A DNA stretch of 64,000 nt from Candidatus Yanofskybacteria bacterium RIFCSPLOWO2_02_FULL_44_18 (GCA_001794755.1 MGKT01000008.1:11491-75490), one strand, 5' to 3'; positions 7,180-19,745 are shown, counted from the first letter of the stretch. Translations and numbers: made by a program. The notes: generated by a model from the letters alone, not told the origin.

Positions 7180-7251
7180 GGCCTCATCGTCTAGCGGTTA
7201 GGACACGTGATTCTCATTCACGTAACAGGGGTTCGACTCCCCTTGAGGCTG
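7180..7251 (+). tRNA. tRNA-Glu (anticodon CTC)
   Basis: Acceptor GGCCTCA/TGAGGCT, D-arm GTCT-AGCGGTTA-GGAC, anticodon stem CGTGA/TCACG with loop TTCTCAT, 4-nt variable loop, T-arm AGGGG-TTCGACT-CCCCT, discriminator G. Confidence 0.85.
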
Positions 7252-8838
7252 CATTAGTGGATTTTTATCGTAGAGACGCTCATAATCCTTTTGTTTTACA
7301 ACGGTTTTACGAGGTTCTAGCCGTTTGTGTATCTTAGAAACTTCAGCAGATATGGTTTTCATTGGGAATAGCGATTTTTCTAAATCAATTTGCAGTATTC
7401 GGTCTTTTAGTAACAGGTTCTGACCAAGTGCCGATAAAATGCCTTTTCGAATTGCAATACTGCCGTTGTTGAATTTTCCAACCGCATCTTTAACGAATGC
7501 CAACATTTCATCAGCGACACTAAGCCATCTGTTTATTCGGTCGCCTGTATCACCAAGCAACTCCTCAAGTTGAGCCTTTTCCTTCTTTAACGGGGCCATT
7601 TTGGCGTTATACTCGTCATCTCCAATGAGTTGAGCGGCACGCATATCCATATAGCCATCAATCTTCTTTAGACAAAGCGTGTAACCTGCTTGCTGGGTCT
7701 TTAAGACAGCATTTCTGCTCCCAGCCTCTTTCTCATTCTCTTGCCGAAACCATTTCATAGCATAGGTTTGAAATTCAGGCGGTATCTGTAACTCCTCAAT
7801 CTTCTTATTGATTTGTTTCTTGAGCTCCGTAACTTCAATGGAGCCTTGGCTACAGGTAGGAGTTATTCTTTTTGAGCAGTGATAATAAACATAGTGATGG
7901 ACATTGCCATTATTTTGATGCTTCCACTTCTCTTCAATGACAATTGTGCCCTTGCACTCTCCGCATTTCATCATACCTGGAAAATCAAAAATATGATTTT
8001 TTGGTCTCGGCCGTCCTTTTCTGCCAAGTAGATATTGTATCTGGTCATATTCTTCTTCGGTAATCATCGGCTTATAGTTGCCCTTAATCCAATCTCCGCT
8101 TCCCATAGGATATTCAAAAGAACCATAGTAAAAAGGATTGCTAAAAATCTTATAGAGCGTGCTTCGGCCTATGGGTGTGCCTTGTCGTGTTTTGAACTTC
8201 CATTCTTTGGTTACTATCCTGAAAATCTCTACGACAGTGTAGTTCCCCGTGAGCATCAAATCAAACATTCGCCTGACCGTATCAAAGCGTTCGGGGTCAA
8301 CGAGGTTTTTCTTAGCTCCTCGTTCTGTATATTTATCGCTCATATAACCAATAGGGCCACGGCCAGGGAATACGCCAGCTTGTAATCGGGCCCGAAGCCC
8401 TCGTTTTACATCCTCGCCTTTATTATCATTCTCTAATTTGGCCTGACTACAGAATAGGTTGAGTAAGAATTTATCGTTAGGGGTGTTACGAAATACTTGG
8501 CTTGGCGTTCGCACTTCCACAAGCTTTTCAATATCAAAGAGATAGATAATCTTGCCTGTATCAATTGAGTTTCTTGAAATACGGCTGGCATTCCAGACCA
8601 ATAGGGCATTAGCTTCACCTTTCTCAATCTTCTCAATCATCTTATTAAAAATAGGTCGGCCTGGATGCTTAGCAGAATGGGACTCCTCTAAAGTAGCAAC
8701 GACAGAGAGCTTATCTTTTTTTGCTACGTCATCCAGTTCTCTAATTTGAGAATCAATTGAAGCTACCTGTCTATCTTCTTGTTCCGAAGACTTACGAGGG
8801 TAGATAAAGTATTTAATTTTTGTATTATCGTTTTTCAT
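7198..8838 (-). CDS. Large serine recombinase (resolvase domain + recombinase domain + zinc ribbon)
   Basis: N-terminal YPRKSSEQEDRQ (YxRxSSxxQ catalytic serine motif). Resolvase-like core. C-terminal CGECKG...C...C zinc ribbon. The last ~17 codons overlap tRNA-Glu on the opposite strand. Confidence 0.85.
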   Translation of the reverse strand: MKNDNTKIKYFIYPRKSSEQEDRQVASIDSQIRELDDVAKKDKLSVVATLEESHSAKHPGRPIFNKMIEKIEKGEANALLVWNASRISRNSIDTGKIIYLFDIEKLVEVRTPSQVFRNTPNDKFLLNLFCSQAKLENDNKGEDVKRGLRARLQAGVFPGRGPIGYMSDKYTERGAKKNLVDPERFDTVRRMFDLMLTGNYTVVEIFRIVTKEWKFKTRQGTPIGRSTLYKIFSNPFYYGSFEYPMGSGDWIKGNYKPMITEEEYDQIQYLLGRKGRPRPKNHIFDFPGMMKCGECKGTIVIEEKWKHQNNGNVHHYVYYHCSKRITPTCSQGSIEVTELKKQINKKIEELQIPPEFQTYAMKWFRQENEKEAGSRNAVLKTQQAGYTLCLKKIDGYMDMRAAQLIGDDEYNAKMAPLKKEKAQLEELLGDTGDRINRWLSVADEMLAFVKDAVGKFNNGSIAIRKGILSALGQNLLLKDRILQIDLEKSLFPMKTISAEVSKIHKRLEPRKTVVKQKDYERLYDKNPLMQPQGESNPCYVNENHVS

Positions 8839-9004
8839 AAACTAAAGGGGACAGTCTGGTTCCCCAATTCAGTTCTCCGAAGATTACCTCATTGGCAGAC
8901 TACCCCCTTTAGGGGACGAGGTAATAAAAAACGGAGCTATAAATTGGGGAACAAGTCCATTATACCATTTTGGTTAGGGTTGCCAATCATACTTTTCAAG
9001 CTAT

Positions 9005-18033: not shown

Positions 18034-19014
18034 TTGGTATTCTTTGGCATTTTGCTAAAGACAGCATTGTTCAATAAGTCGGACTTGTTCCGTAAAAAGC
18101 AATTACTGGCTTACGGGTCTACCAAGAGCTTGGCCGAGCATCATTGGAGCAACTATGAGGGTCAAGGAGTGAACGAAGACCAACACAAGCGACGAAATCT
18201 TGTTTTCCTTCAAGTAGCTCGCTACTCCCACAAAGAACTCCCTTACGGGAGCTTTTTGTTGAGAAAGATAACAAAAACTGATAAATTGAGAATTATGAGC
18301 CAGGGCATTGCATATAACATTTATTGCGACGAATCCAGAGTAGAAAACCCAGAGTCCGACAAGATGGTAGTCGGGGCTATTTCGTTACCTCGTAATATCA
18401 AAGAAAAAACCACTAAAGAGCTAAAAAACATTTACAAGAAACATAACTTTTCAGGTGAATTAAAATGGACAAAAGTCAATAAAAATTATTCAAGCTTTTA
18501 CAAAGGCATAATGGATTTTGTCTTAAAGACCGAAGACCTAAACTTTCGGTGCATAATCGTGGATAAGAGTAAGGTTGATTATTCAAAATATCACGAGAAT
18601 GATACGGAATTGGCGTTCTTTAAGTTTTACTATCTGATGTTGCGGAGCAGGCTCTTAGATAATAATAGTTACTACATTTTTCTTGATAAAAAGCCCACCA
18701 GAGATAAAAATAGAGCAAGAGCACTGCTATCATTTTTAAGTTCTTATGTATTACTTCGTCGCAAAGAATGTAACATAGAGCATCTACAAGCTTATGACTC
18801 AAAAGATAATATACACATACAGCTCGCTGATTTTTTAACAGGATTAGTTGCTTATGGCGTTAACACAGAAGCTGGAAATAATATAAAAATGCAGATGGTG
18901 AATTATTTTAAGGATGTTTTCTTAATAGAAGACTTGCTCAAAACAACGCCATTAACCAGTAACAAGATTAATATACTTGCCTGGAATCCAAATTTTTATG
19001 AAAAAGGTCGTTGA
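18034..19014 (+). CDS. DUF3800-family protein (alternative shorter start ATG at 18295)
   Basis: YNIYCDES (the N-terminal DES motif) and the C-terminal QLADFLTG motif characteristic of DUF3800. The 87 in-frame codons upstream (TTG at 18034) may be an extension or a leader. Confidence 0.65.
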   Translation: MVFFGILLKTALFNKSDLFRKKQLLAYGSTKSLAEHHWSNYEGQGVNEDQHKRRNLVFLQVARYSHKELPYGSFLLRKITKTDKLRIMSQGIAYNIYCDESRVENPESDKMVVGAISLPRNIKEKTTKELKNIYKKHNFSGELKWTKVNKNYSSFYKGIMDFVLKTEDLNFRCIIVDKSKVDYSKYHENDTELAFFKFYYLMLRSRLLDNNSYYIFLDKKPTRDKNRARALLSFLSSYVLLRRKECNIEHLQAYDSKDNIHIQLADFLTGLVAYGVNTEAGNNIKMQMVNYFKDVFLIEDLLKTTPLTSNKINILAWNPNFYEKGR

Positions 19015-19456
19015 GCTAATAATACTAAATACTCCAGATGAATATCGTAAAGAATTTGAAGAAAACTATGCGAACTCATCTTTTACACTTAGGCCCAATG
19101 TGCCAGTTGTTTTTGTGGCAGAAGATTTTGACCATATATTTTCAGAGCCTGGCCCAGAAGGAACAGGTAGGGTGTTTAGCTTAAGAAGAGCTAAGAAAAT
19201 GCATTTTATGAAAGCCATATTGAGTAACGATATAGGAACAGAAATAATGCTTGAAACAGAATCTGGCAATATAGCTGTTTTTTGCGATGCCCTTGATTGT
19301 GTTATGTATCTTCGCATAAGACCACCCACAGGTCGGTTACAGGTAGCAACCTTTTTTGACTTTGGTAAAGACCATACAAAAATGAATAAAAAGCAGAAAA
19401 AGAAATGTGTTCCGATTTCAGATGATGAATTAATGAATAAGGTCAAAAATACCTAA
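18998..19456 (+). CDS. Hypothetical protein (152 aa) overlapping the DUF3800 gene 3-prime end
   Basis: ATG at 18998 overlaps the DUF3800 stop by 17 nt, suggesting a two-gene module. No motifs recognised. Confidence 0.5.
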   Translation: MKKVVELIILNTPDEYRKEFEENYANSSFTLRPNVPVVFVAEDFDHIFSEPGPEGTGRVFSLRRAKKMHFMKAILSNDIGTEIMLETESGNIAVFCDALDCVMYLRIRPPTGRLQVATFFDFGKDHTKMNKKQKKKCVPISDDELMNKVKNT

Positions 19457-19745
19457 AAGACCCTTGCGGGCCCTTTAGGTTAGCGGGAACTGTTAGTTTT
19501 GGGCAAACAATCCCCAGAAATGCCGACAGTTTTACAATGTGTAAAGCTTACTCAGATGATAGCATATATAAGATGCAGATTCAACAAATTGTTGACAATC
19601 TATTAATTACCAACTTCTAACAATGGCGAAGGGAGAATACCCTGTAATCTGCATTAAAGCGGTTCTAACGTCGTCCATTGCACCCTGCCAAATTTTAATT
19701 AGTTTTCTTTACAAAACAGGAATATTGGTTTAATATTATAAAACT

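Follow-up and report, generated by a model that had tools for sequence, protein, structure and literature searches.

We examined a block of low-GC DNA in a 64,000-nucleotide stretch of the genome of Candidatus Yanofskybacteria bacterium RIFCSPLOWO2_02_FULL_44_18 (GCA_001794755.1, MGKT01000008.1:11491-75490; the whole stretch is called the window here, and positions are counted from its first letter). The block, window positions 7253-19684, lies between murF/tRNA-Glu(CTC) and rplU and is very probably an integrative island that its own large serine recombinase (LSR) placed at the very 3' end of the tRNA-Glu(CTC) gene. Comparison of the two ends and of the attachment (att) sites reconstructed from them shows that integration leaves the tRNA intact, that the ends share just the four nucleotides CTGC and that the site of the element, attP, lies in the 3' end of the LSR gene. 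We infer that the island is mobile. It belongs to a large, apparently undescribed family of tRNA-targeting serine-integrase elements.

An initial annotation of the window had proposed that the division and cell wall (dcw) cluster stops after murF, that an accessory defence island begins at tRNA-Glu and that ribosomal protein genes resume at about 19.7 kb. This layout holds. The core gene rplU starts at 19746, and the order ftsI-murF-tRNA-Glu(CTC)-rplU-recR-dnaB is kept in related Ca. Yanofskybacteria/Paceibacterota genomes, the nearest of which at species level have MurF proteins that are 58-59% identical to that of the window. Exact protein matches assign the window to a Patescibacteria population from groundwater, and for two of the island proteins NCBI gives Ca. 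Yanofskybacteria bacterium RIFCSPLOWO2_12_FULL as the source. Empty sites, which the annotation had suggested looking for, are present in two relatives, with gaps between the tRNA and rplU of 43 nt (L009) and 310 nt (L008), and the rplU promoter of the relatives (TTTACA...TAATAT) aligns with window positions 19705-19740. The conserved gene order and the empty sites indicate that the block is accessory DNA at a conserved site; on these alignments, murF-tRNA-Glu-rplU is shown to be the ancestral arrangement.

The composition of the block is foreign. Its mean GC content is 0.376 (minimum 0.338), compared with a mean of 0.443 outside it (s.d. 0.019, n = 99 intervals of 1 kb), and GC at third codon positions is 0.29-0.40 in the island genes compared with 0.48-0.54 in ftsI, murF, rplU, recR and dnaB. 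The direction of the shift was thus described correctly at the outset, while its size (30-35% against 40-50%) was overstated. Outside the island, the interval 38001-39000 is the only one of 1 kb with a GC content below 0.40 (0.396).

Junctions of the island and the split recombinase gene

The integration target, tRNA-Glu(CTC) at 7180-7252(+), was identified with ARAGORN and matches Rfam RF00005 with 60 bits. It is intact and provides the B arm of attL. Its last nucleotides (7249-7252) are the attL core, CTGC, and in the integrated state it does not encode CCA. The same core recurs in attR at 19685-19688, which gives a core-to-core length of 12,436 bp, and is followed there by CAAATTTT... and then by the conserved rplU promoter. 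When the host sides are joined, the sequence reads tRNA-Glu ...GAGGCTG-CCA-AATTTT and continues into the rplU promoter; CAAATTTT restores the encoded CCA in the reconstructed attB, as in the relatives L012 and L013. The island therefore ends at 19684/19688, about 190 bp farther right than the position of 19500 first assigned to it, and the att sites expected of a serine recombinase were found as a short core of the appropriate type at both ends.

In its integrated form the LSR gene occupies 7198-8838(-), encodes 546 amino acids and overlaps the tRNA by 55 nt, an overlap that the initial annotation had already recorded. Residues 1-530 are encoded by the element, with Gln530 (Q530) coming from the core, and the open reading frame (ORF) then continues into the antisense tRNA (7201-7248), which supplies a surrogate tail of 16 residues (531-546). 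The native C-terminus lies at the other end of the island, where 19607-19684(-) encodes GAMDDVRTALMQITGYSPFAIVRSW followed by a stop (25 codons at 19610-19684) and forms the P arm of attR. The translation of this detached exon, GAMDDVRTALMQITGYSPFAIVRSW*, is identical at 18 of 24 positions to the last 24 residues of an unsplit homologue, P0015 (E value of 2e-12), and DNA encoding a native-type tail occurs exactly once in the window, here, on the LSR strand and just left of the rplU promoter. The LSR body and the distal exon, joined at the core, are in frame (...YDKNPLMQ-GAMDDVRT...RSW) and yield a protein of 555 residues, compared with 556 for P0015. Neither a stop nor a frameshift interrupts the body or the tail exon, and the cores are intact as well. 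The overlap of the LSR coding sequence with the tRNA is thus explained by an att junction that runs through the integrase ORF, the true C-terminal exon being at the opposite end of the island; because attP lies inside the 3' end of the ORF, integration leaves the gene body (7253-8838) without its last 25 codons. The reconstructed junctions are ...AATCCACTAATGCAG|GGTGCAATGGACGACG... for attP and ...CTTGAGGCTGC|CAAATTTTAATTAG... for attB; as synthetic sequences, the same junctions read ...GATAAAAATCCACTAATGCAG|GGTGCAATGGACGACGTTAGAACC... and ...GGTTCGACTCCCCTTGAGGCTGC|CAAATTTTAATTAGTTTTCTTTACA..., respectively.

The two arms on the tRNA side are related in the manner expected for this class of enzyme. 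The B arm uses the T-loop of the tRNA (GGTTCGA), and the P arm, which contains the T-loop-like motif GGTTCTAAC within the tail exon, has its T-loop mimic GGTTCTAA 5 bp farther out. In all six independent islands with reconstructed junctions (that of the window and the five listed below; five by script and L128 by hand, using the tRNA-side half-sites only), the shift is exactly 5 bp, with (T)TCGAACC in the B arm and TTAGAACC farther from the core in the P arm. The zinc-ribbon motifs of serine integrases lie 5 bp nearer the centre in attB than in attP (Rutherford et al., 2013, PMC3783163), and the att sites therefore conform to what is expected of an LSR. The T-loop is, on this comparison of sites, the probable zinc-ribbon-domain motif.

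Sequence matches identify the enzyme as a genuine large serine recombinase: it has the Pfam domains Resolvase (4.9e-22), Recombinase (3.6e-09) and Zn_ribbon_recom (7.4e-07), matches the PHROG 95 integrase (2.3e-66) and weakly matches the solved SPbeta and A118 integrases by sequence. Arg15, Lys16 and Ser17 (R15, K16 and S17), in the R-x-S region of the catalytic serine, are invariant in an alignment of 20 LSR sequences. In the AlphaFold2 (AF2) model of P0015, long paired helices at residues 355-459 follow the zinc ribbon and form a coiled coil.

Several observations on the ends stand beside these. No direct or inverted repeat of the tRNA and its flank of at least 12 nt is present in the window (k-mer search of 7150-7340 against the whole window), as the shared core is only 4 nt; general repeat finding in the window returned only the similarity among the 5' regions of p62, p61 and p84, three small genes of the island. 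Folding of 19457-19705 is no better than that of shuffled sequences (z = -0.21). The P' half-site (window 7253-7300, ...ERLYDKNPLM) encodes the C-terminal stretch that is best conserved in the LSR family (LY..NP.L), so that protein and DNA-site constraints overlap and the conservation of the peptide may partly be conservation of the site. A 24-nt inverted repeat (79% complementary, 52-nt loop) at 8856-8955 sits in the 166-nt gap between the stop of the neighbouring tyrosine recombinase gene and the start of the LSR gene and is a possible terminator or regulatory site.

Related elements at other tRNA genes

A total of 4309 LSR homologues were found at E <= 1e-20, and those with a named source are nearly all from Patescibacteria. 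Genomic contexts were fetched for nine homologues. The closest relatives (L088, L089 and L090; LSR 95, 90 and 84% identical) run into an antisense tRNA-Glu(CTC) with the same overlap of 55 nt. In L091-L093 (71%) the antisense gene is tRNA-Asn, with an overlap of 13 nt, in L094-L096 (59 and 52%) it is tRNA-Gln, with an overlap of 61 nt, and in L098 (54%) it is a tRNA that is interrupted by a group I intron. The conserved neighbourhood consists of the LSR, a protein of 376-400 residues, a homologue of the small protein p62, a variable protein of about 400 residues and often Mod-Res. At tRNA-Glu in three other hosts the LSR is 84-95% and Res 93-94% identical to the window copy, whereas MurF is 56-57% and FtsI 70-81% identical; that the island genes are far more alike between hosts than the core genes indicates horizontal spread. 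A closer empty site for the hosts of L088-L090 was searched for and not found, and an exact-pattern scan of metagenomes with the 5' half of the tRNA gave no matches.

The C-termini of the homologues have a common ...LEP...(L)Y..(N/S)P.L(L) and then diverge. The tails of 51 of 104 carry (D/E)SN, the translation of the antisense T-loop; many others stop within 2-4 codons, and a minority end in ...LRALD(D/E)VRT...(F)A.V(R/K)(S/N)W. A scan of Joint Genome Institute (JGI) metagenome contigs with an LSR alignment yielded a further set of 80 loci at 38-56% identity. Of the 75 LSR genes here that have a determinable stop, 44 terminate within an antisense tRNA (Gln, Asn, Glu, Ser, Trp, Tyr or His), and about 17 have native-type tails. 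Among the tRNA-abutting loci with sufficient sequence upstream, five (L103, L128, L145, L147 and L153) have a distal tail exon, 7.3-10.8 kb from the LSR gene and on its strand; each has a shared core of 4-6 nt and an in-frame reconstruction, and the tails end like those of unsplit homologues.

Comparison of L097 with L098, two assemblies of the same lineage, shows that serine-integrase elements have accumulated in tandem at one tRNA. L097 differs from L098 by an additional 8 kb element (L097:11597-19576) inserted precisely at the junction of LSR1 and the tRNA, with a changed LSR1 tail; the additional element encodes a 503-residue LSR, helix-turn-helix (HTH) proteins and a PIG-L-family protein. 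Upstream LSRs in such tandem arrays read into the P arm of the next element and regain a native-like tail (LSR0 in L097/L098). This polymorphism, together with the spread between hosts, indirectly supports the predicted reactions of the LSR, namely integration by attP x attB and excision by attL x attR dependent on a recombination directionality factor (RDF).

Three further loci are of interest for the family. The tRNA targeted in L098 (11581-11900, minus strand) is split in the anticodon loop by the group I intron (Rfam RF00028, 72.6 bits) and is missed by ARAGORN; some junctions of the family that seem to have no tRNA may therefore be intron-containing tRNAs. In L112 three successive copies of the tail-exon motif (YRQLEDVRT...; positions 2356, 2921 and 4238) lie upstream of an LSR abutting tRNA-Glu(TTC) and may be old remnants of attR type. 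In L101 it is the 5' end of ychF rather than a tRNA that the LSR ORF enters.

Weighing the interpretation against its alternatives

A number of observations weigh against integration by the LSR at the junctions described above, or against a simple history of the island. The junction is resolved to the 4-nt core rather than to the crossover dinucleotide, and inspection of the right-hand half-sites (B' and P') by eye revealed no convincing symmetric zinc-ribbon motif. Of the 21 tRNA-abutting loci that have 5.9 kb or more of flank upstream, just seven showed a tail exon within that flank. Confidence in the tail is moderate to low in the AF2 model of P0015, which predicts that a helix extends, with moderate confidence, into the start of the tail and that the final residues are disordered. 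A search for terminal overlaps among the LSR-bearing loci L088-L181 revealed no circular contig. The 23 contigs with an identical MurF carry the island at 99.97-100% identity wherever they are long enough, and no empty site was seen among them. Finally, a strain variant, L005 (ANAN16-1 scaffold_1063, positions 1-3586), is 99.5% identical to the window over the distal 1.7 kb, including the tail exon and the candidate defence pair PDC-M04 described below, and has unrelated genes to the left of a breakpoint at window position 17999, within the end (stop codon) of p61. Proteins of 248 and 806 residues without Pfam matches take the place of the restriction-modification (R-M) cargo in L005, while the PDC-M04 pair, the tail exon and attR are retained. 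As L005 shares the distal end and differs internally, either the cargo can be exchanged or the island is a mosaic or arose through several events.

The divergence of L005 at 17999, together with a p61 homologue near the far end of L091, first favoured an element end at about 18000, with the PDC-M04 pair outside the island. This was dropped once the detached tail exon and core were found at 19607-19688. The TGCTATAA similarity near 18006 is, on inspection, most simply an extended -10 promoter consensus.

The alternative that survives best, although we consider it rather unlikely, is that the LSR delivered the island and that it is now a fixed, immobile relic kept by R-M addiction or by useful defence. 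The island is 100% identical in all contigs of the population, across several samples and with no empty site, the integrated LSR is without its native tail and the window copy has no Rep-like gene, all of which would suit a relic. Against this stand the intact LSR body, tail exon and cores, the closely related copies (84-95%) in other species and the cargo variant L005 within the population itself.

It is very improbable that the island integrase is instead the tyrosine recombinase at 9005-10129(-), with the LSR a passenger or an invertase. This protein (374 residues; Pfam Phage_integrase, 1.2e-10) has intact catalytic residues, with R...HxxR...H...Y recognizable by eye, and its gene is paired with an HTH gene. 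Tyrosine integrases classically target tRNA 3' ends (44.5% of Y-Int compared with 4.9% of S-Int elements; PMC7192596). The window nevertheless has no direct tRNA repeat of at least 12 nt, only the 4-nt core, and the junction crosses the LSR ORF and follows the 5-bp rule of the LSR. The same tRNA junction and tail-exon architecture is present in islands that have a Rep-like gene and no tyrosine recombinase, which occurs in only seven of the 80 metagenome loci. The initial annotation had counted two recombinases and, next to them, a zinc-ribbon/HTH protein; all three genes are present, and the tyrosine recombinase is an accessory, swappable module rather than the integrase of the island.

The partner gene at 10194-10595(-) encodes a protein of 133 residues with weak matches to HTH_17, CoiA_N and DUF5679 and a CxxC...CxxC zinc ribbon. 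It is a conserved partner of the tyrosine recombinase, co-occurring with it in L090, L101 and five metagenome loci. Tyrosine recombinase homologues number 618 in Patescibacteria, at 60-76% identity, and adjoin LSRs in L090, L100 and L101 as well as in the seven metagenome loci. In the window and in L090 the pair replaces the gene for the 376-400-residue protein, one copy of which matches the rolling-circle Rep family PF05144 at threshold; the idea that these genes beside the LSR in relatives are divergent tyrosine recombinases was ruled out, as they do not align. In L100 (2874-5456) and L101 (1317-8108) the tyrosine-recombinase/HTH and LSR backbone is accompanied by copper/heavy-metal cargo that includes P-type ATPases, a CsoR-like repressor, a cupredoxin and DsbD.

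We give very little credence to a vertically inherited hypervariable intergenic region shaped by illegitimate events, in which the overlap of the LSR and the tRNA would be an accident of ORF calling. Unrelated genes do fill the murF-rplU gap in other relatives (4.3 kb in L010, 1.1 kb in L011 and 3.9 kb in L013), and tRNA-Glu(CTC) between murF and rplU is inverted in L011 (8048-8123) and L013 (9264-9341). Yet the hosts resemble each other far more closely in their LSR and R-M genes than in the flanking core genes, seven tRNA species are involved in such overlaps, and the detached exon matches unsplit homologues and rejoins in frame in six islands. The inverted tRNA of L013 is accompanied by a minus-strand ORF of 830 residues with an N-terminus that is P-loop ATPase-like by eye.

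A degraded prophage is scarcely credible: the LSR matches the PHROG 95 integrase, and the DUF3800 protein and the small nuclease of the cargo also match PHROGs, but capsid, tail, terminase and lysis genes are absent among the island genes, an LSR scan of the IMG/VR viral contigs found no relative, and size and content fit plasmid-like or integrative elements, with Rep-like genes in relatives.

Cargo, proposed life cycle and relation to known systems

The cargo includes a Type III-like R-M system, as initially annotated. Mod, an N6/N4 DNA methyltransferase at 12484-14418(+), matches Pfam N6_N4_Mtase (4.5e-43) and the PADLOC models MTase_III (2.3e-43) and MTase_II (6e-53), the Type II models scoring slightly better. 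The centre of mod (13068-13425, about 360 nt) cannot be aligned at the nucleotide level to the L088-L091 elements, which are otherwise 80-84% identical; this is consistent with a swap of the target-recognition domain and suggests differing specificities. The Res helicase subunit at 14421-16409(+) is a superfamily 2 (SF2) ATPase of 662 residues with no nuclease domain (Pfam ResIII, 2.1e-16; PADLOC REase_III, 3.8e-16; helicase part of the NCBIfam BPTD_3080 restriction endonuclease). The nuclease subunit, which had not been annotated, is a separate ORF of 116 residues at 16396-16746(+) that overlaps the Res stop by 14 nt, is TnsA-N/PD-(D/E)xK-like (Pfam Tn7_TnsA-like_N, 2.2e-08) and matches positions 849-941 of the 970 of NF046055. 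The same split between helicase and nuclease is present in L091 (LSR 71% identical), and L097/L098 have a fused gene of 771 residues. The split is therefore a natural variant, and a frameshift or pseudogene is ruled out.

The other cargo genes are more recognizable than was first thought, when only the R-M pair was credited with a function. The 430-residue protein at 10942-12234(-), present as described and labelled an orphan, has a conserved C-terminal winged-helix DNA-binding domain of OmpR/PhoB type (approximately residues 314-430). This domain of about 115 residues is the only part common to its 17 homologues; the N-terminal 300 residues are all-helical, variable among the homologues and without a Pfam match. 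A receiver domain was looked for in the protein and not found, and it is therefore not a response regulator; it is presumably a DNA-binding regulator. The adjacent genes that had been called a DUF3800 pair match the PADLOC candidate defence pair PDC-M04 (18034-19456, +), A then B, within the att-bounded island. DUF3800 is confined to the first gene, PDC-M04A (18034-19014, +, core from about 18295; PADLOC 4.1e-59, Pfam DUF3800 1.4e-12), and its partner PDC-M04B, of 152-159 residues, is without it (PADLOC 9.2e-12). A search with PADLOC, as proposed initially, thus recovered both the R-M components and this pair.

About 280 nt (18016-18294) separate the likely promoter (TGCTATAAC at 18006) from the DUF3800 core, and this segment folds marginally better than shuffled sequences (z = -1.93). 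DUF3800 genes associate with 11 different structured RNA motifs (PMC5737381). Rfam scans of the island detected no DUF3800-associated or other RNA, and none of those 11 motifs was found.

The small protein p62 (10610-10798, -) is a conserved core protein of the element family. Its copies are 70-81% identical in L088-L093, it has 172 representative homologues of about 60 residues, and p62-like genes are present in 40 of the 80 metagenome loci, which makes p62 the most constant partner of the LSR and thus a candidate directionality factor or regulator. Its paralogue p61 (17816-18001, +) is 40% identical (E value of 5e-10), in agreement with the two paralogous 60-residue proteins noted at first. 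The cargo genes p84 and p248 (16789-17803, +) have no significant family matches; p248 encodes the previously annotated membrane protein, of 248 residues, with one N-terminal hydrophobic anchor as read from the sequence.

These features suggest the following life cycle. The LSR would insert the element at the tRNA 3' end through the CTGC core, sending its last 25 codons to the far end, and excision would rejoin body and tail into a 555-residue LSR on a circular 12.4 kb molecule. Directionality or regulation may be supplied by p62/p61 or by the HTH/zinc-ribbon protein. The tyrosine recombinase and its 133-residue partner, in place of the Rep-like gene of relatives, could serve in multimer resolution, as a second integration route or in cargo exchange. 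The Type III-like system (Mod, helicase Res and separate nuclease) and the PDC-M04 pair would give phage defence; the R-M system may also stabilize the island by post-segregational killing, and the winged-helix protein, divergently transcribed from mod, may regulate R-M or element genes.

A more tentative proposal, which we regard as possible rather than probable, is that swapping of the LSR C-terminus works as a state sensor built into the element and that use of the T-loop as the zinc-ribbon-domain motif lets the family hop between tRNA species. Only the excised circle would encode the native 555-residue LSR (...LRALDDVRT...VRSW), the integrated copy bearing a tRNA-encoded surrogate tail. 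If the two forms differ in activity, directionality or stability, the structure of the gene would partly control integration versus excision, and the serine recombinase would have its own equivalent of integration-dependent switches.

Insertion of large cargo into genomes relies mainly on serine integrases, and here a family of thousands appears to target tRNAs systematically; its attB/attP pairs can be read for seven or more tRNA species, and its T-loop motif is recognizable. If this reading of the motif is correct, the family would be a naturally retargetable set of integrases for conserved sites. An integrase ORF that crosses attP and has its tail swapped on integration is a simple candidate for the control of directionality or expression. 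Patescibacteria, or the candidate phyla radiation (CPR), have reduced genomes and few defences. We know of no established genetic tools for them; a native system that integrates site-specifically, and whose sites are defined, could be developed into one. The element family would also account for the movement of R-M systems, candidate defence pairs and metal-resistance genes between Patescibacteria. In annotation, the LSR genes of the family are systematically given wrong ends; the boundaries of the islands can now be placed at nucleotide resolution.

The LSR resembles the large serine integrases (A118/LI, SPbeta SprA/YokA, phiC31, Bxb1, TnpX and CcrAB) in its Resolvase and recombinase domains, zinc ribbon and coiled coil, and its att sites resemble theirs in being short, with few identical central bases and a 5-bp shift of the outer motif between attP and attB. 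It differs in that the target is the 3' end of tRNAs of seven species, with the universal T-loop as the B-arm motif, and in that attP lies inside the integrase ORF, so that integration exchanges the last ~25 residues. In a survey of integrases, 14 of 297 S-Int islands were at t(m)RNA genes, a use that was stated to be unreported and to need proof (Mageeney et al., 2020, PMC7192596). Integrases and recombinases go unmentioned in the main text of a 2025 survey of genomic islands in Patescibacteria. We searched the literature for an attP located in the gene of a serine integrase, without a relevant result.

In gene structure, the SSV1-type archaeal integrases come closest: attP lies in the int gene, the target is a tRNA and the parts of the split int flank the integrated element. 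They are tyrosine recombinases and lose a large, essential part through the split; the present enzyme is a serine recombinase from which only about 25 C-terminal codons are detached, and its ORF stays open into the antisense tRNA. Islander-type or P4-like tyrosine-integrase islands share insertion at a tRNA 3' end with restoration of the tRNA, an adjacent integrase and low-GC accessory or defence cargo. In contrast to these, the present island has no displaced tRNA fragment or long direct repeat (typically at least 15 nt), the junction belongs to the serine recombinase, which is the tRNA-proximal gene, and the tyrosine recombinase is absent from most relatives. The tycheposons of Prochlorococcus, from a different phylum, are alike in carrying cargo, site-specific integrases and often replication genes, and 27 of 937 use a large serine recombinase (bioRxiv 10.1101/2020.12.28.424599); the text examined describes neither an integrase ORF that crosses an att site nor a detached tail exon.

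Among defence systems, Type III R-M (EcoP15I-like)/NF046055 has the same mod-res operon, variable Mod centre, SF2 Res and PD-(D/E)xK-type nuclease; here the nuclease is a separate 116-residue ORF, and the scores are far below the curated equivalog cut-offs. Both genes of PDC-M04 are matched, adjacent and in the A-B order, PDC-M04 being itself only a candidate system. Taken together, these comparisons set the island and its relatives apart from described systems by their systematic targeting of tRNAs, by an attP inside the integrase ORF and by the split gene that results.

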